A stretch of DNA of 64,000 nt from assembly GCA_028688275.1 (NCBI GenBank), contig JAQTYN010000003.1, forward strand, positions 1,358-65,357. Reading direction: 5' to 3'. The notes beneath the pieces were generated by a model, which saw only the letters and a list, made by a program, of their open reading frames with translations, had not been told where the DNA came from and ran no database searches. The stretch is from Gallionella sp. Its GTDB lineage: Bacteria; Pseudomonadota; Gammaproteobacteria; Burkholderiales; Gallionellaceae. Made by a program: the position numbers and the translations under genes. Positions 3,991 to 64,000 of the stretch are shown here, in pieces (the stretch's first letter is position 1; the number at the start of each line of letters is the position of its first letter).

Positions 3991-4020
3991 GTCGAGTAAG
4001 GTGATTGCACCGTACCCGAC
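3987..4020 (+). repeat. GTAG-type REP hairpin overlapping the hpnE stop
   Basis: GTAG followed by GTCGAGTAAGGTG-ATTG-CACCGTACCCGAC imperfect palindrome. Confidence 0.6.
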
Positions 4021-4145
4021 TTTTTTGAGGTTCTTGTTGGGCTGCGTTATAAAACCACAAACACGACCAGAGTTTATACGTTGCATTCATACTTTGAATA
4101 CGCTACATTATTCTCCATTAACTTCCTACTTTTTAGGAGACTATT

Positions 4146-4370
4146 ATGTATGCGGAAAAACTGTCTGTTTCGATTCCTGCGGGACTCGTTGGATTTATTG
4201 AACAATATCGCGCCACGCACGCGCTCAAAAGCCGTTCTCAAGTGATCGGGGCTGCGCTGGAATTGCTGCGTCAGCGCGAATTGGAAACGGCGTATCTCGC
4301 CGCCAGCCAAGAAGTCGATGCCGATTGGGAGCAAACCACAGCGGATGGGTTGAATCATGAAACGTGGTGA
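4146..4370 (+). CDS. Ribbon-helix-helix (CopG/MazE-type) antitoxin
   Basis: KLSVSIP..SRSQVI..AL RHH pattern and acidic tail. It overlaps the toxin start and has an AGGAG RBS. Confidence 0.85.
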   Translation: MYAEKLSVSIPAGLVGFIEQYRATHALKSRSQVIGAALELLRQRELETAYLAASQEVDADWEQTTADGLNHETW

Positions 4371-4692
4371 AATTTGGTTTGCCGATTTAAATCCTACACG
4401 AGGCTCGGAAATCGCCAAATGCCGCCCCGTGCTGATCGTCAGTAACGATGCAAACAACCGCGCCGCCAGCACCATCACCATCCTGCCGCTGACTTCCAAT
4501 GTGGCAAAGGTCTATCCCTTTGAAGTCCTGCTCACCGCCGCCGAATCAGGCTTACCCAAAGACTCCAAAATCCAAGCCCAACAAATCCGCACCATTACCA
4601 AAGAACGCATCACGGGCAACGCGGTCGGGAGTGTGTCAAAACCAACGCTACAATTGGTTGACGCGGCGATTCGGTTGCATTTGGGGGTGTAA
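4357..4692 (+). CDS. mazF: PemK/MazF-family endoribonuclease toxin
   Basis: MKRGEIWFADLNPTRGSEIAKCRPVLIVSND..ILPLTS..SKIQAQQIRTI. Confidence 0.92.
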   Translation: MKRGEIWFADLNPTRGSEIAKCRPVLIVSNDANNRAASTITILPLTSNVAKVYPFEVLLTAAESGLPKDSKIQAQQIRTITKERITGNAVGSVSKPTLQLVDAAIRLHLGV

Positions 4693-4706
4693 AAATAACA
4701 TGGAGA

Positions 4707-4925
4707 ATGCAGATGAATACTTTGATTCGCCCAACTGATAACGAAAACGCAGCTATCACAACGGCGGCATTATCCGATCCCGACGCGCTGCTGCTGACCG
4801 ATATCGAACGGGTGCAAGTTTGTCTTTCGGGCAGTGATTTTGCCCAAAGCATTCACAAGCACTTTGCCGATCTTGGCTTAGATGAACTACCGATTCCACC
4901 GCGTCAGGTTTGGCAAGTGCGTTAA
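4707..4925 (+). pseudogene. 72-aa chimeric antitoxin-like ORF (BrnA-like N-terminus, FitA/StbC-like C-terminus)
   Basis: GGAGA RBS. PTDNENAAITTAALSDPDALLLTD resembles the BrnA N-terminus and SIHKHFADLGLDELPIPPR resembles the FitA-like tail (recognised from memory). Confidence 0.45.
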
Positions 4926-4986
4926 TGGTAAACTTGCCCCCGCGTGCTTCAATTTAAGTTAGCAAATTTTCAGCACATAGCTTTAA

Positions 4987-5088
4987 CTCCCCTCGCCCAC
5001 TTGTGGGAGAGGGGCTGGGGGAGAGGGAATGCACCCGAAAATCAAAACGCCCCTCTCCCTAACCCTCTCCCGCAAGCGTGAGAGGGAA
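4987..5088. repeat. CCCTCTCCC/GGGAGAGGG palindromic repeat, copy A
   Basis: Two nested hairpins, closely similar to 29376-29473. Confidence 0.85.
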
Positions 5089-5158
5089 TTGCCGCATTAG
5101 TGATGGATAGGGTGGATGGTAAAATTGCCCCTCGCAAGAAAGGAAGCGGTCGATTGAT

Positions 5159-5350
5159 ATGAAAGCAAATGAGTTTGAACAACGATTTGAGGCGGGGAAG
5201 ATATTTTGGATGCGCTTGATCTTTCCAAAGCCCGTCGAGTTGCACAGGGTCAAAAACGGGTCAACGTGGATCTCCCTGCTTGGATGGTGGAGTCTTTGGA
5301 TAGAGAGGCCAGCCGCGTCGGGGTGAGCCGACATCCATTATCAAAGTTTC
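5159..5350 (+). pseudogene. Frameshifted CopG/BrnA-type antitoxin preceded by a BrnT-like 3' remnant
   Basis: Restoring two 1-nt deletions gives MKANEFEQRFEAG-EDILDALDLSKARRVAQGQKRVNVDLPAWMVESLDREASRVGVSR-SIIKV. Confidence 0.7.
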
Positions 5351-5392
5351 GTAAGGCAGTTTCGCGCAGCAACCCACCAAAATAGGACGAAT

Positions 5393-6277
5393 TTGAATAT
5401 GAATACCTTTAATCCTCTACTTGATTATCTGCATCAGTCTTTGTGCATAGACTATTTTAGTCCTTATAATTGTTATTATTATTATGATGGAGAGAAAAAA
5501 CTCGAAGGGAGGGCTACTTTTTTCATGCGTCCTTCTAATTACTCCCCTTGTGCGCCTTTACAGCTACAAATAATGATCGCATTTACTATTCTTGACGGAC
5601 TTATTGATGAAGCCAATCCCGACCTTGTTGATTATAGCTTCGATAAAAAATATAAGGCGTTGCCAGTATCAACAAACATCGAAAAAATTAAACAATCTAT
5701 TTATCGTATTATTCGGTTGATTCGGAACAAGATAACGCATTCCCCAACAGAAATAGGCTATTCGGATGAGGAATTAACAATTAAGGAATTCAAAATATCT
5801 AGACACGCATTAACTGCGCTAATAGAGTTGATACTTGTATTTGTTGAATATAAAACCGTTACGGATAAATACTTTGAGTTAATCGTCAGTAGCTACTACA
5901 GGAGTATTCAACGTGGCATTTCTGGCTCCCCAGACACTCACACACCCTCACTTCATAATGTCTCCGTGGAAAATAAAAACTTCTATCACAAACAACGACA
6001 TTTATTTTGCATTAAAAATGTTGATTTAAACCTAAATAATTGTGTTTCTATTAAGCGCTCCCATTGTGACTATGAAATTATCGACTCTGATGGACAAAAA
6101 TTTCGAGTGAAAGATCGGGATGATTATTTAATAAAGATCAAAGATGATGGTCTATTTCTTATTCCTGGGTTTCAGATTGCAGATAGGGAGCTGATTGAAT
6201 ATGAGTTGCTAAATCAATGGCGCATTGAGGAAAATTGGTTTGGCAAATTGAAAATTCTTACGCAAATAGAGATATAG
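5393..6277 (+). CDS. AT-rich hypothetical protein with an RxxxxH (HEPN-like) motif
   Basis: 294-aa ORF with an AGGA RBS and a helical segment ending RLIRNKITH. Confidence 0.7.
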   Translation: MNMNTFNPLLDYLHQSLCIDYFSPYNCYYYYDGEKKLEGRATFFMRPSNYSPCAPLQLQIMIAFTILDGLIDEANPDLVDYSFDKKYKALPVSTNIEKIKQSIYRIIRLIRNKITHSPTEIGYSDEELTIKEFKISRHALTALIELILVFVEYKTVTDKYFELIVSSYYRSIQRGISGSPDTHTPSLHNVSVENKNFYHKQRHLFCIKNVDLNLNNCVSIKRSHCDYEIIDSDGQKFRVKDRDDYLIKIKDDGLFLIPGFQIADRELIEYELLNQWRIEENWFGKLKILTQIEI

Positions 6278-59126: not shown

Positions 59127-60311
59127 TCAAAACACCATGTCGTAGCTCGCGGTCAATAAATCGAGATGCCCCATGGGAACGGATGTATTGGGCGTGGCTA
59201 TAAAAAAAGGGATTTGTGCATTGTTTTTCCAGCGATCATATTGCAGCTTGAGCGCACTGCTGTTGTCCAATTCATAACGCAATGACAAGGAGGTTGTACT
59301 GTGCGCTTCAGCCTGCGCGGGAGCTAAATTAGCCACCACGTCTAAACGCTGCACCATGTGGTAATTGTTGTAGGTCAACATCGGCAACCATTTCCCGACG
59401 CGATAACCCAAACCATACACCTCACTAAAATCTTCACCGTAAGAGGCTTTGCGGTTGATGTACAAAAACTCAGCTCGCGCCACCCAGTGCTCTGCATCGG
59501 CATTCAAGGAAATGCCGTAAAGGTTTTGCGGTGTCTTATTATTAAATGCCAAAGGGGTGGTCGAAAAAGGATTGGTATTTTGAATATTAGATTGTAGATA
59601 CACCAAGCGCGAGGTGAACCAATCTCGATTTAATACTAAATCGGCTCCAAGAATATTGGACCAACGACTATCGGTGCGCGTGTTCCCACCGTTATAGAGC
59701 TTCCAATAACCACTGTCCTTAACGGTCTCATCACCCGCAAAAAAATTCATACTCGACGACCAGTCGCCCCAGTCATCGCGATATAACATATTGACTCCGT
59801 TGTAATTGACGATTTCCCAGCCATACATTTGCGGAGCCAAATGCACCCAAGGGTAAGACATTCCCAAGTCTTGCGATTCGGAATAATACAATAAAGGCAA
59901 ACGCTTACGCCCCACCTGCAAGGTCAGTTCATCATTCAACTTCCAATCGGCATATAACCACTCAAAATCCAGTTGACCGCCTGCGGCACCGCGCGCCACC
60001 ACTTGTCCTGTGACCGAAAAACGAGGATTAAACACCGCAGAACCTTGTAAGCCTAACTTGGTGTCAGGTCTCCATTGCACACCACCTTGTTGGTACACAC
60101 CCGTTTGTGCGAAATCAGAGACGAAGCAAGGACAGCGAAAGCTGCTGCTAGGTTGTGCCGCCCCAGCGTTAAGGGTCTTCCCTACTGCTAAGGTCAAGAA
60201 ACCAGAGCCTTCAAAATTCACCCCAGCCAGTTCAATGGCAGCACTCTGTGATGACATACCTAGCCACAACATCGCCGTTGTTAATTTGAGTATAGTTTGT
60301 AAATTCTTCAT
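59127..60311 (-). CDS. Putative outer-membrane beta-barrel porin, paralogue 1
   Basis: Signal peptide, alternating beta pattern, QVGRKRLPL and C-terminal YDMVF. Confidence 0.75.
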   Translation of the reverse strand: MKNLQTILKLTTAMLWLGMSSQSAAIELAGVNFEGSGFLTLAVGKTLNAGAAQPSSSFRCPCFVSDFAQTGVYQQGGVQWRPDTKLGLQGSAVFNPRFSVTGQVVARGAAGGQLDFEWLYADWKLNDELTLQVGRKRLPLLYYSESQDLGMSYPWVHLAPQMYGWEIVNYNGVNMLYRDDWGDWSSSMNFFAGDETVKDSGYWKLYNGGNTRTDSRWSNILGADLVLNRDWFTSRLVYLQSNIQNTNPFSTTPLAFNNKTPQNLYGISLNADAEHWVARAEFLYINRKASYGEDFSEVYGLGYRVGKWLPMLTYNNYHMVQRLDVVANLAPAQAEAHSTTSLSLRYELDNSSALKLQYDRWKNNAQIPFFIATPNTSVPMGHLDLLTASYDMVF

Positions 60312-60428
60312 ATTTTTTCTCAGAAATCGCTGATTAATTCCGAACATACCCTCGACAAGCTTTGGAAAAGCAGATTTAATCAGAGCTCCCCTCAGTTGAC
60401 AATTGCAAATATAAATACACTCGCAAGC

Positions 60429-61589
60429 TTAAAACACTTGGTCGTAACTGACCGTCAATAAATCAACATGCCCCAAAGGCGTCACCGCATTCGGATTGGC
60501 GGTAAAAAAGGCGGGATCAGCCTTGTTTTGCCAACGATCAAATTGCAACTTAACAGCACTCACGTGGGAAAGATCATAGCGCAACAAAATTGAGGTCGTA
60601 CTATGCGCTTCTGATAACAGTGCATCAGGGGCAAGTAGTGCTTGGTAATAATTATGGAAACTTATCATTGGCAGCCAATGACCTAAATGGTAGCCCAACG
60701 AGTAAGATTGACTAAAATCCTCTCCATAAGATGCACGGCGGTCAATATACATAAACTCTGTGCGTACTACCCAATGTTGGTTATCAGCATTTAGCGAGGC
60801 ACTGTAAATGTGCTGCGGCGTTTTGGCACCCAACACCAACGGATCGGGGGCAAATAGATCGGTATTCTGAATATCCGATTGGATATATGCCACACGCGCT
60901 TCAAACCAATCTTTGCTTAAACTCAAATCCGCACCGATAATGTTAGACCAGCGACTATCCGTTCGGGTATTTAGCCCATTGTACATTTGCCAAAAGCGAC
61001 TATTTTTGACCTTTTCTTCGCCCGCAAAAAAATTCATGGCAGCGTACCAGTCATTCCAATCGTCTTTGTACAAGACGTTCAGTCCGTTGTAATTCACGAT
61101 CTCCCAACCATACACTTGTTGCGCCAAATGTACCCAAGGATAAGTCCATCCCACATCTTGCGATTCGGAGTGATCAAGCAGAGGCAAACGCTTGCGTCCG
61201 ACCTGCAAAGTCAATTTGTCGTTGAGCTTCCAATCCGCATACAGCCATTCAAAATCAAGCTGCCCCCCCGCTGCCCCCCGCGCCACGATCTGCCCCGTAA
61301 CGGATAGACGTGGACTAAACACAGCGGATCCCTGCAAGCCCAACTTGGTATCGGGTTGCCATTGCACACCGCCTTGCTGGTAAACCCCACCCTGCGCTAA
61401 GTCAGACAAAAAGCAAGGGCAATGGTAAGAGCCAAAGGGCTGGGCAGCACCATGATTAAGGATAGTACCCGCCGACAAAGTTAAGAAACCCGAACCCTGA
61501 AAATCCACGCCTGCCATCTCAATCGCTGCCGTTATGGGCGAAGTTAAAACTCCAAACATGAAAAATGGGAGTGTGTATTTCAAGCGCAT
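60429..61589 (-). CDS. Putative outer-membrane beta-barrel porin, paralogue 2
   Basis: Long near-identical stretches with paralogue 1 and C-terminal YDQVF. Confidence 0.75.
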   Translation of the reverse strand: MRLKYTLPFFMFGVLTSPITAAIEMAGVDFQGSGFLTLSAGTILNHGAAQPFGSYHCPCFLSDLAQGGVYQQGGVQWQPDTKLGLQGSAVFSPRLSVTGQIVARGAAGGQLDFEWLYADWKLNDKLTLQVGRKRLPLLDHSESQDVGWTYPWVHLAQQVYGWEIVNYNGLNVLYKDDWNDWYAAMNFFAGEEKVKNSRFWQMYNGLNTRTDSRWSNIIGADLSLSKDWFEARVAYIQSDIQNTDLFAPDPLVLGAKTPQHIYSASLNADNQHWVVRTEFMYIDRRASYGEDFSQSYSLGYHLGHWLPMISFHNYYQALLAPDALLSEAHSTTSILLRYDLSHVSAVKLQFDRWQNKADPAFFTANPNAVTPLGHVDLLTVSYDQVF

Positions 61590-61694
61590 AAAAATGCTTC
61601 CATCACAAAATTGCATTGCGAGCTATTTATACAATTAAAATCAATTGATTGAATAAGAATCTTCGGAAACAAACCAAAGAGATCATCGTGTGAA

Positions 61695-62435
61695 TTACAC
61701 CGCAGCCCGCTGTCTTCGACTTTCAAATAAACAAATGCCCGCGCTGACAGAAACATTCAAACTCTCCACGCTGCCCATCATCGGGATGCGCACCAGCTCA
61801 TCGCAAGTTTCACGAGTCAGACGGCGCAAACCTTCGCCTTCCGCACCCAACACCCATGCCAGACCACCCGTATGTTTGAATTGATGCAAGTCTTGCGTCG
61901 CTTCGCCCGCCGTCCCAACCACCCAAATATCGTGTTCTTGTAACTCCCGCAAGGTACGCGCCAAGTTGGTCACGGTAATGTAAGGCACGGTTTCTGCTGC
62001 GCCACACGCTACTTTTTCAACTGTGGCAGTGATGCCCACGGCGCGATCTTTGGGCGCGATGACCGCATGTACCCCAAACGCATCGGCACTCCGTAAACAC
62101 GCGCCCAAGTTGTGCGGGTCTTGCACACCATCCAACACTAAAATCAACGGCGGTTCTTCCAAGGTTTCTAATACGTCCGACAAATGCTGCACGCGTCGCG
62201 CCGCATCCACCCGCGCTGCGATACCTTGATGCCGCGCCCCGCCCGCCATGCCATCCAAACGCGCTGCTTCAATGGGAATCATGCGCACATTGCTGTCTGC
62301 TGCCAGCTTGATGAGATCGCGCATACGCGGGTCTTGCCGCTGCGCTTGGAAATACACTTCCATCACGCCTTCAGGATTTTGGCGAATGCGCGAGGTGACG
62401 GCATGGAAACCATAAATTAAACGTAAATCAGCCAT
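61695..62435 (-). CDS. rlmB: 23S rRNA (guanosine(2251)-2'-O)-methyltransferase
   Basis: [25 protein letters not shown] and ESLNVSV. Confidence 0.98.
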
Positions 62436-62468
62436 GTTTGCTGTCTTTCTAAAGTGGGATATTTGTTT

Positions 62469-62560
62469 TTAGTCGTTAGTTATTAGCTGTTGGCTATTAG
62501 TCGTTAGTCGTTAGTCGTTAGCTATTAACAACTAACGACTAGCAGCTAGAGACTAACGAC
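62469..62560. repeat. Inverted heptamer-repeat element (TTAGTCG)n/(CTAACGA)n
   Basis: Tandem TTAGTCG units followed by complementary CTAACGA units. Confidence 0.85.
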
Positions 62561-62566
62561 CAACCA

Positions 62567-64000
62567 CTACCCCAACCTAACTTGTAAGTTTAACTTAAAC
62601 AGAAACTTATTGTTTTCTCTGTAAATTTGTCCAAAGCGATGCCGCGTACTAGAAGGCGTGTCAAAAAAAGCGTGCTGGTAAAAATAATCTTTTAATTGCT
62701 GATAGTGGTTGGTGTGGTAAAAAACCAGCTCGCCATCTTGCCGTACAACTAACGCGCCATTCGCCGACAAATTGCCGTCCCATGTTTGATTCGGGAAAAT
62801 TCCTAGCATGGAATACTGAATAAAATCACGCAATCGAATATGCACGACAGTTACGTCGTCACTTGCCGCGAGGCAAGTCTTGGGATATTCCGCCAAGTAT
62901 TTGGTGATTTTCTTTCGGAAAAACGCCAGTAGTGCGTCCGCCATCATCGAGGGCATGGCGGTATCGACTTTGCGCAAATTGGATTCGTAAGTCTTGTTTT
63001 CACAACCGTAAAAATGAAACTGCCCACCTGCGTTCAAAATAGCAAGAATACGATCTTTGATTTTTGACTTGGTTTCGATGTGGTTAATATCATCAACCGC
63101 ATCTGGATTTAATCCACTGATTTCGTAAATAAAATTGGTGGCTTGCGACGCGTTAATCAACGTCGGATTCGCGCCTAAAAAGGACTTGATACCAATACCT
63201 TGATCGGCAAATAACAGATTTCCTTCTTCAAAATCCAGATGAAAATCTGCCTTGTCGCCCGAAGTGCCTTTGGTTTTGGTGAGTTGCAACAACTCCGTTG
63301 TTTGGGTAATTTTTTCGTTAGAGAAAGTTGCTTTACCCGCTTTAATTTCTTGCGCTAAGGCACTAATTTCCTCGCTCGAAAACAAGGCACTCAGGGCAAT
63401 TTTAGTGATGGTATCTGCGTGGATAATTTCAATATCCAGCGCGTTTAAATTCAACGCCGTGTCGCCATTTTTAATCCGAATCACCCGCACCGCATCGCTG
63501 GTGGGATTGCCTTGCGCATCGCCATAATGCAGCAAACGTTGATGAATGAGTTTAATCACCGCGTACAACTCACTTAATTCGCCTTTGTTACGAGTAATCT
63601 CCATATCATTCCCCCGTAAATTTTGCTGCATATAGTGCAAAGTGCTTTTCGCCACGGCAGACACGACATCTACGCACACGCTATTGCCCAGCTGTTTCAT
63701 CGCCTGCGTTTTAGAAACAGGAAATTGATAATCGGCGGGAAAGCCCATCATTTCGGTCGCTTCTTTTAAACCAATACGGCGCACTTCGTCATTAACCCGA
63801 TAAAATTCCCAGTTGCGCCTATCATCAATGACAGAACCTTTGCCGCCGACCCGTAAAGTGAAGCCGACTTTTTTCTCGCAAGGCGCGTTAAAAATATCCG
63901 ACATAGTTTTGGTCAGAAGCAACGGTGTAGGGAAGACAAATGGACGGCGCGTATCCACGCTACAGCGATCAAATCCCACGATAAAAACCCGTGCGCGATG
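62567..64000 (-). CDS. C5-cytosine methyltransferase C-terminus in frame with an HpaII-family restriction endonuclease (5'-partial)
   Basis: Frame is open from the window edge: HRARVFIVGF (motif VIII), MMGFP, AMKQLGNSV (motif X). It continues without a stop into MEITRNKGELSELYA..GDKAD..GIKSFLGANPTLINAS..DTPSSTRHRFG (ATG at 63604). Confidence 0.88.
   Translation of the reverse strand, partial: HRARVFIVGFDRCSVDTRRPFVFPTPLLLTKTMSDIFNAPCEKKVGFTLRVGGKGSVIDDRRNWEFYRVNDEVRRIGLKEATEMMGFPADYQFPVSKTQAMKQLGNSVCVDVVSAVAKSTLHYMQQNLRGNDMEITRNKGELSELYAVIKLIHQRLLHYGDAQGNPTSDAVRVIRIKNGDTALNLNALDIEIIHADTITKIALSALFSSEEISALAQEIKAGKATFSNEKITQTTELLQLTKTKGTSGDKADFHLDFEEGNLLFADQGIGIKSFLGANPTLINASQATNFIYEISGLNPDAVDDINHIETKSKIKDRILAILNAGGQFHFYGCENKTYESNLRKVDTAMPSMMADALLAFFRKKITKYLAEYPKTCLAASDDVTVVHIRLRDFIQYSMLGIFPNQTWDGNLSANGALVVRQDGELVFYHTNHYQQLKDYFYQHAFFDTPSSTRHRFGQIYRENNKFLFKLNLQVRLG

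Follow-up and report, generated by a model that had tools for sequence, protein, structure and literature searches.

Can a Type II restriction-modification (R-M) system of the HpaII kind, whose methyltransferase (MTase) and endonuclease normally come from separate genes, be encoded as a single polypeptide, and what would this mean for its host? The question is raised by a locus at one end of a 64,000-nucleotide stretch of a Gallionella sp. draft genome (C88:1358-65357; genome G000, 3.16 Mb in 112 contigs), which is referred to here as the window. A first-pass annotation of the window had described a C5-cytosine MTase and a HpaII-family endonuclease in one continuous reading frame and had offered three readings of it, i.e., a true R-M fusion, a gene with two starts, or a recent loss of a stop codon. 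We analyzed this frame together with the contig DNA upstream of the window. We conclude that it probably encodes a natural single-polypeptide Type II R-M enzyme of the HpaII (CCGG) kind, with both activities and the specificity predicted from sequence.

One reading frame with two complete domains

The frame is on the minus strand. In a listing of open reading frames (ORFs) with open ends, it spans 62567..64000 (477 codons without a stop) and runs off the window. Its translation contains the strings quoted in the first-pass annotation, i.e., ...AMKQLGNSVCVDVVSAVAKSTLHYMQQNLRGNDMEITRNKGE... and AMKQLGNSV (motif X), followed by ...TLHYMQQNLRGND-MEITRNKGE at the start of the endonuclease. The MTase N-terminus had been placed beyond the window, and extension along the contig confirmed this and gave the whole ORF, which has 674 codons from a GTG or 663 amino acids (aa) from an ATG located 11 codons downstream (MWDEV...). 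The ATG is the likelier start. The parts of the gene are as follows.

62567..64000, minus strand: stretch of the fused R-M ORF that falls within the window (477 codons plus stop); its start is outside the window, at window-equivalent position 64591 (GTG) or 64558 (ATG).
63605..64000, minus strand: C-terminal 132 codons of the C5-MTase and a tether of ~10 residues; motif VIII (QHRARVF), a short target-recognition region, motif IX, motif X (GNSV), and a C-terminal helix.
62567..63604, minus strand: HpaII-family endonuclease domain with a full-length PF09561 match; it may also be an internal ORF of 345 aa plus stop that begins at Met330 (numbered in the 674-aa reading).
63602..63604, minus strand: internal ATG of Met330, where the nuclease gene ancestrally started; most fused homologues retain the Met, and in unfused relatives the nuclease begins at this point.
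63611..63615, minus strand: GGGGG run resembling a Shine-Dalgarno (SD) sequence, 6 nt upstream of the internal ATG.

Both domains are complete. Residues 138-476 of the window part matched the Pfam profile RE_HpaII over its entire length (positions 1-359; E = 2e-77); ahead of them, Pfam recognized the C-terminal end of DNA_methylase (E = 4e-13), and NCBIfam agreed on this methylase end. On the whole ORF, PF00145 covers residues 41 to ~325 (E = 4e-81) and PF09561 covers residues 335-673 (E = 8e-77), the latter matching over its full length with 259 to 261 bits against a curated cutoff of 25. The MTase motifs follow the canonical order, i.e., F47-G49-G51 (I), P112-C113-Q114 (IV), E155-N156-V157 (VI), Q197/R199/R201 (VIII), and G302-N303-V305 (X), and an alignment of 118 fused homologues showed FxGxG, PCQ (including the catalytic Cys113), ENV, QxRxR, and GNSV to be invariant. 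For the nuclease, this protein was aligned with 71 unfused HpaII-family nucleases (72 sequences), and it carries all nine invariant residues (N6, G8, E12, D120, K140, L149, N151, G268, and R343 in R-domain numbering). The completeness of the two domains and the retention of these residues support the reading of a true R-M fusion.

The AlphaFold2 (AF2) model of the full-length protein had a predicted local distance difference test score (pLDDT) of 85.5 and a predicted template modeling score (pTM) of 0.67; the nuclease domain alone reached a pLDDT of 95.5. In the model, the C-terminal helix of the MTase (residues 307-324) is followed by ~10 residues and then by the first nuclease helix (residues 336-351). 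The nuclease domain matched no PDB chain by sequence (best E, 0.37), and a Foldseek search with its AF2 model returned nothing significant (best E, 0.02; MspI only at E = 0.21, with a TM score of ~0.2). The fold class and catalytic residues are thus not assignable from solved structures.

Conservation of the fusion

A protein search over 5.8 billion sequences listed at least 120 clusters that were 50 to 100% identical to the query. Both Pfam domains were present in 120 of the 120 clusters listed, most of which were 640 to 700 aa long; the named hosts among them were Sulfuriferula, Methylotenera, Formosimonas, Moraxella, and Psychrobacter. As in the present gene, both domains lie in one ORF with no intervening stop, i.e., the one-polypeptide architecture of Type IIC systems.

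That the genome is a draft in 112 contigs might favor an artefact of assembly or sequencing as the source of the continuous frame; a very recent stop loss in a decaying system would have the same appearance. Either origin is extremely improbable, and both were rejected on the comparative evidence. The nearest genome match, an independent metagenome-assembled genome (MAG) of Gallionella sp. (L010, hereafter the sister MAG), has the same uninterrupted frame at the same locus with 92 to 93% identity. More than 110 fused homologues (45 to 93% identity) come from many sources, including 2.27- to 2.29-Mb contigs of Moraxella sp. ZJ142 and Moraxella nonliquefaciens and an 8.8-kb RefSeq plasmid of Francisella philomiragia (NZ_CP009446), in which the fused copy is annotated as one gene. 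Given the independent MAG and these homologues, an indel artefact is very unlikely, and every catalytic motif is intact. The suggestion of a recent stop loss fails for a further reason: the fused state is common to homologues down to ~45% identity and to a sister group at 38 to 44%.

The premise of the first-pass annotation, that HpaII-type systems normally have separate R and M genes, held in an exhaustive profile-free search with the nuclease domain as the query. Of the 150 best HpaII-family representatives, 146 had the length of a stand-alone nuclease (<400 aa), and only two were fused (one of 664 aa with 63% identity, the other of 659 aa with 38%).

The NCBI annotation of the fused proteins is "HpaII family restriction endonuclease," a name from which the methylase half is absent. 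The present copy is another member of this widespread, automatically annotated family and not a new kind of system; the family itself is clearly a variation on the known Type II R-M systems. In practice, this is an ordinary defense gene already named by family, and its value lies in the biology of the family rather than in the single copy. Our literature searches found no experimental paper on fused HpaII-family proteins and none on MnoI or on HpaII-type enzymes of M. nonliquefaciens. We take M. nonliquefaciens to be the source of MnoI, a CCGG isoschizomer; if this is right, a member of the fused family may already have been purified with its architecture unrecognized.

Origin of the fusion

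In eight more distant unfused loci, the end of the M gene overlaps the start of the R gene or lies a few nucleotides before it, in another frame. In one example (...TATGATCACAGGAAATAAAGGAGAA), R starts at an ATG and M stops at a TAA 14 nt later. This overlap is the common translationally coupled layout. The fused gene would descend from such a two-gene arrangement, in which the 3' end of M overlapped the ATG of R in another frame; judging from the unfused relatives, the two genes would have been joined by a frame change shortly before the R start, and the fused state has since been retained across a large clade. Within the clade, two loci are split. In one (L014, 77% identity), the stop and start overlap in TTGCTAA, preceded by GAAGGAAG; in the other (L147/L148, with a nuclease 58% identical), stops interrupt the linker in frame, and AAGGAG and a TTG start come after them. 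These variants indicate that small changes suffice to turn the fused state into the split one and back, and that the nuclease start works when the gene is split.

CCGG depletion in host genomes

We compared the counts of CCGG with those expected from a second-order Markov model (observed/expected [O/E]). CCGG is the most depleted 4-bp palindrome of the whole assembly (O/E, 0.114), and the residual sites are clustered. No site occurs in 234 of 319 10-kb bins, and 802 of the 905 counted sites fall in 13 bins on six contigs (O/E, ~1). Without these six contigs, the core genome contains 224 CCGG sites in 3.05 Mb versus 8,197 expected (O/E, 0.027), the lowest value of all 256 tetramers (next, GGCC at 0.21). 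Only 2 of 472 CCGG sites of four congeners are kept at aligned positions here, compared with 38% for the GCGC and CGCG controls. The values for other genomes and loci are as follows (counts, observed / expected).

Congeners without the gene (100 kb each): O/E 0.71, 0.97, and 1.15.
Congener G013, with a two-gene pair: O/E 0.27.
Sister MAG, a 60-kb region distant from the locus: 1 / 168, O/E 0.01.
G443, fused: 0 / 30, O/E 0.00.
G442, fused (contig G442:C4): 22 / 56, O/E 0.39.
G444, Sulfuriferula MAG with the nuclease half truncated: 10 / 133, O/E 0.08.
Nine other fused loci, flanks pooled: 9 / 135, O/E 0.067.
Ten unfused loci, flanks: O/E 0.64.
Fifty-three loci with other C5 methylases: O/E 0.96.

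Carriers of the fusion are unusually intolerant of CCGG sites, and the depletion supports CCGG as the predicted target. The comparison of fused with unfused systems rests on short contigs and few genomes, since PF09561 was detected in only two other genomes when 400 of the same class were scanned.

The six contigs with a normal CCGG density (C8, 59 kb; C85, 20 kb; C12; C42; C48; and C53) are either recent arrivals that rely on methylation or misbinned DNA. Five of them have a GC content of 0.50 to 0.60, above the genome average, and the four that were inspected look like mobile elements or co-binned DNA: C8 is phage-like (a polymerase with an intein-like insert, a tape measure protein, and a primase), C85 resembles a conjugative element (relaxase, coupling protein, and N6 methylase), and C12 carries a Tn3-type transposase and an integrase. 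In the Sulfuriferula MAG, the relative of the fused gene (L013:5265-6278) ends right after the nuclease start (...NDMITRNKGELKARP...), leaving an orphan methylase in a host that is still ~12-fold depleted in CCGG. The low O/E of GGCC in the core of the Gallionella genome, which has at least one further C5 methylase (at C72:7640-8146), suggests a second, GGCC-specific system, present or past.

Translation products and cause of the depletion

The internal ATG and the G-rich stretch that had led to the dual-start reading are both present (63604-63602 and 63615-63611, respectively, 6 nt apart). Across the 118 fused proteins, a Met lies 2 to 6 residues before N(K/R)GE in 106 (2 to 9 residues in 108), in a linker from motif X to NKGE that is otherwise variable in sequence and length (37 to 56 residues). 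At 13 fused loci, we scored how well the sequence ahead of the internal Met pairs with the anti-SD sequence and ranked this value among those of all other positions of the gene. The duplex in the present gene (-8.6 kcal/mol) was in the top 0.9% of positions, and high ranks were also obtained for L126 (GAGGAGGAAAGTATG, -12.0; top 0.3%), L012 (AAGGAG; top 1.4%), L121 (top 2.7%), and the sister MAG (top 5.6%). The SD-like sequences are encoded by linker amino acids that differ between lineages (RGND, EKEQI, EEES, and SEREI), which suggests a constraint on the RNA and not on the protein. Because the old ribosome-binding site and ATG of the nuclease are still present, the gene would probably give two products, a 74-kDa M-R fusion and a lower level of free 39-kDa nuclease. 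Alternatively, only the 74-kDa polypeptide is made and the internal Met and SD-like run are functionless ancestral leftovers, an explanation that we place not far short of an even chance. Several points weigh in its favor and against a second product. Four of the 13 fused loci had no SD-like signal upstream of the internal Met; a nearby Met is absent from 10 of the 118 proteins (most proteins without it have V, I, or L there), so that internal initiation would not be universal and the Met may be a tolerated relic. Ribosomes translating through from the M start would also hinder internal initiation. Moreover, an engineered R-M fusion of Eco29kI is fully functional as one polypeptide (PMC3039593). 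Mere leftovers, however, would hardly be expected to survive as the Met does across ~50% divergence in a linker that varies so freely, or to be provided by different amino acids in each lineage, and the split variants of the clade start their nuclease at exactly this site. We consider a free second nuclease, and with it the dual-start reading, plausible, at about even chances.

Self-restriction is the standard explanation for the avoidance of orthodox Type II sites. With a DNA recognition surface of its own in each domain, the fused enzyme would act as an orthodox, self-toxic Type IIP system, unlike classical Type IIC/IIG enzymes, and such self-toxicity would explain the loss of CCGG from the chromosome versus its normal density on the mobile-element contigs. 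The near absence of CCGG could instead have come about by the unrepaired deamination of 5-methylcytosine (m5C) in the absence of Vsr or through earlier CCGG systems, in which case the fused gene could have settled only in genomes that were already depleted; we regard this as a credible alternative, although well short of even. The following observations count against self-restriction by the fused gene. No Vsr homologue was found in the G000 genome or beside the fused gene, so deamination could contribute. The unfused HpaII-type pair of G013 (O/E, 0.27) indicates that CCGG systems circulate in the genus, depletion persists in the Sulfuriferula MAG although its nuclease is truncated, and the depletion in G442 is moderate only. 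Further points against the main reading are that the nucleases of the unfused comparison loci (O/E, 0.64) are only 27 to 35% identical and may not cut CCGG, and that the CCGG specificity itself is predicted from family membership and from the depletion, which could be older than the fused gene or have another cause. As for deamination, the sequences that replaced ancestral CCGG sites were mostly the transversion products CAGG/CCTG (130) and CCCG/CGGG (122), not the deamination product CTGG/CCAG (70); CTGG/CCAG was thus not in excess at these sites, and the Markov O/E of CTGG was 0.95. At a DNA identity of ~73%, however, synonymous sites are saturated, which weakens this comparison and keeps it from being proof of selection. 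Furthermore, the depletion tracks the fused gene in several unrelated hosts, which argues against both deamination and earlier systems and is consistent with self-restriction.

Comparison with known R-M systems

We take the HpaII system of Haemophilus parainfluenzae to consist of separate M.HpaII and R.HpaII genes with an adjacent Vsr homologue and CCGG as its target. The fused enzyme resembles it in the nuclease family (PF09561), the C5-cytosine MTase partner, the gene order (M and then R), and the predicted CCGG target, which fits the depletion in the host; it differs in being one polypeptide and in having no Vsr either adjacent or elsewhere in the genome. Its target-recognition region is also much shorter than that of the M.HpaII-like enzyme of congener G013 (430-codon open frame). 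With the public fused "HpaII family" proteins (e.g., from M. nonliquefaciens, Moraxella sp. ZJ142, Psychrobacter celer/faecalis, Methylotenera, Formosimonas, and the F. philomiragia plasmid), it shares the two-domain architecture, a size of 640 to 700 aa, 42 to 93% identity, the retained internal Met, and, in many cases, an LxLF-type motif near the N-terminus. Those proteins are annotation-only entries, and the present copy is at a different locus (rnr-rlmB).

Among described enzymes, the nearest counterpart is RM.Eco29kI, in which a Type IIP nuclease and an m5C methyltransferase were fused by engineering (PMC3039593). Both enzymes combine, in one polypeptide, an m5C MTase with a nuclease of the kind that cuts within a palindromic site; RM.Eco29kI, however, is an artificial protein in which R precedes M, the reverse of the present order, and its nuclease is of the GIY-YIG type and not of the HpaII family. 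At the time of that report (2011), all proven Type IIC enzymes carried N6-methyladenine (m6A) MTases, and it was predicted that head-to-tail Type II genes might also be found fused in nature (PMC3039593).

Restriction and modification also reside in a single polypeptide in classical Type IIC/IIG enzymes (e.g., BcgI, MmeI, Eco57I, and AloI). In these, the MTase module is of the m6A type, a single recognition module serves both activities, and cleavage takes place outside the site, which is mostly asymmetric (PMC3039593). The present protein falls outside this BcgI/MmeI-like subgroup: its MTase is of the m5C type (PF00145), its nuclease is a self-contained member of a Type IIP family, and it joins two self-contained enzymes in a host with extreme avoidance of the site. 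Host genomes do not avoid the sites of Type IIC/IIG enzymes (avoidance in 0 of 107 site-genome pairs; PMC4687349). Given the loss of CCGG from its hosts, the fused enzyme is orthodox-like in terms of site avoidance, despite its architecture. Fused enzymes could be M+R- while monomeric, with nuclease activity controlled by assembly (PMC12707154); by analogy, the same idea may apply here and could explain how the gene is safely established in a new host.

Nearly all single-chain R-M enzymes described so far pair an adenine methylase with a recognition module common to both activities. The present gene and its more than 100 relatives are natural fusions of ordinary Type II pairs, as the 2011 Eco29kI paper predicted. 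They offer test cases for how methylation is balanced against cleavage when separate expression is impossible, for whether a retained internal start yields a second, free nuclease, and for why the hosts of the fusion lost their target ~40-fold, far beyond the usual avoidance and in contrast to Type IIC/IIG sites, for which no avoidance was reported (PMC4687349). The retained start, the near-total loss of CCGG in hosts, and an N-terminal tail resembling clamp-binding peptides would be worth following up at the bench.

A clamp-binding-like motif in the N-terminal tail

The N-terminal tail contains QLGLF at residues 24-28 (window-equivalent 64508-64522, outside the window), within residues 1-31, which are disordered in the AF2 model (pLDDT, <50). 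A 2024 review whose text nowhere mentions methyltransferases or methylases gives two consensus forms for binding the beta clamp, Q-phi-x-[L/M]-[F/L] and Q-phi-x-[L/M]-x-[F/L], and names QLxLF and QLxLxF as the best binders (PMC11139829). QLGLF fits this consensus and lies in a disordered terminal region. An xLxLF or QLxLx[LF] element occurs 17 to 26 residues before motif I in 78 of the 118 fused proteins (QLGLF, QLSLF, QLNLF, NLDLF, TLDLF, QLSLSF, QLPLSF, QLHLAF, QLSLNL, and QLALNL) and in 2 of 59 control C5 methylases. All of 10 distant unfused HpaII-type methylases, whose N-termini are short, lacked it, as did both unfused methylases with 58% identity. Two split or truncated variants within the clade keep the element as NFDLF; the corresponding sequence in the M.HpaII-like enzyme of G013 is LQYKLF. 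Because DLFAG is part of motif I itself, some of the similarity among the LDLF forms may reflect an old partial duplication.

Clamp binding by this motif is a tentative lead, drawn from sequence comparison, that may or may not hold. A literature search found no paper on clamp-binding methyltransferases, and, if the motif is real, it would be, to our knowledge, the first link of a bacterial R-M enzyme to the replisome clamp. A more far-reaching possibility is that the fused clade forms a distinct single-gene Type II class, in which an m5C methylase joined to a palindrome-cutting nuclease docks on the replisome through the motif, acts as a replication-coupled maintenance methylase, is self-toxic, and purges CCGG. 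We consider this unlikely. Were it true, the enzyme would be a bacterial counterpart of Dnmt1-PCNA, and a fixed 1:1 stoichiometry with a trickle of nuclease from the internal start would result in unusual self-toxicity and a near-complete purge of CCGG from the chromosome.

Genomic setting

The fused gene is preceded by rnr (RNase R) and followed by rlmB, all on the same strand. It is absent from all 24 species-level congeners (G013 has its ordinary two-gene HpaII-type pair elsewhere). The features downstream of the gene are as follows.

62436..62566, no strand: intergenic stretch from the R-M stop to rlmB, with REP-like GTTAGTCGTTAG-type direct and inverted repeats, inside the inserted segment.
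62426..62435, minus strand: right copy of the 10-bp duplication ATGGCTGATT, at the rlmB start; the left copy is at the rnr end (window-equivalent 64614-64623, outside the window).
61695..62435, minus strand: rlmB, a SpoU/TrmH-type rRNA methyltransferase, which directly follows rnr in congeners without the insert.

In seven congeners, rnr and rlmB overlap or are within ~80 bp of each other; in congener G002, for example, the stop codon of rnr and the start of rlmB share bases (AAAAATGGCTGAGCTG). The two genes are ~2.2 kb apart in the present genome and in the sister MAG, and ATGGCTGATT is present at both ends of this interval. The duplication (10 bp exact, or 13 of 14 including the preceding bases) restores both the rnr stop and the rlmB start, and it is what a viable insertion into an overlapping junction, staggered or mediated by microhomology, would need. 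The insert has no other gene, with 25 to 58 nt before the ORF and a 131-nt tail after it. The tail here is the REP-like repeat, which has 47 further matches in the genome (e.g., C88:70850-70901 and C29:6867-6947); that of the sister MAG is an unrelated GA-rich hairpin. The gene would thus have arrived as a 2.2-kb cassette with no other coding gene and would probably be transcribed from the promoter of the host operon.

Other members of the fused family are lone genes close behind codirectional host genes or are located on small plasmids. In M. nonliquefaciens (L118/L119, gene at 4001-5926), the order is murC-RM-ddl in the essential cell division (dcw) cluster, with the gene 1 nt after murC; this copy has GTG in place of the internal Met and is missing the N-terminal LxLF motif. 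Other placements include valS-RM with an ATGA overlap, ABC ATPase-RM-argH, and, in Psychrobacter, small Rep3/Mob plasmids. At eight other fused-family loci, flanking repeats did not exceed chance, and the 10-bp duplication is specific to the present insertion.

At one unfused locus (L166; G069:C1:100300-104300), a HpaII-type pair is disrupted, with a split M and a 317-aa transposase-like ORF between M and R. Further along the window, on the minus strand, 59127-60347 and 60429-61616 encode tandem paralogues of 406 and 395 aa, each with an N-terminus resembling a signal peptide and with ...SYD-VF in common at the C-terminus. These are probably duplicated outer membrane beta-barrel proteins, and both are also present in the sister MAG.

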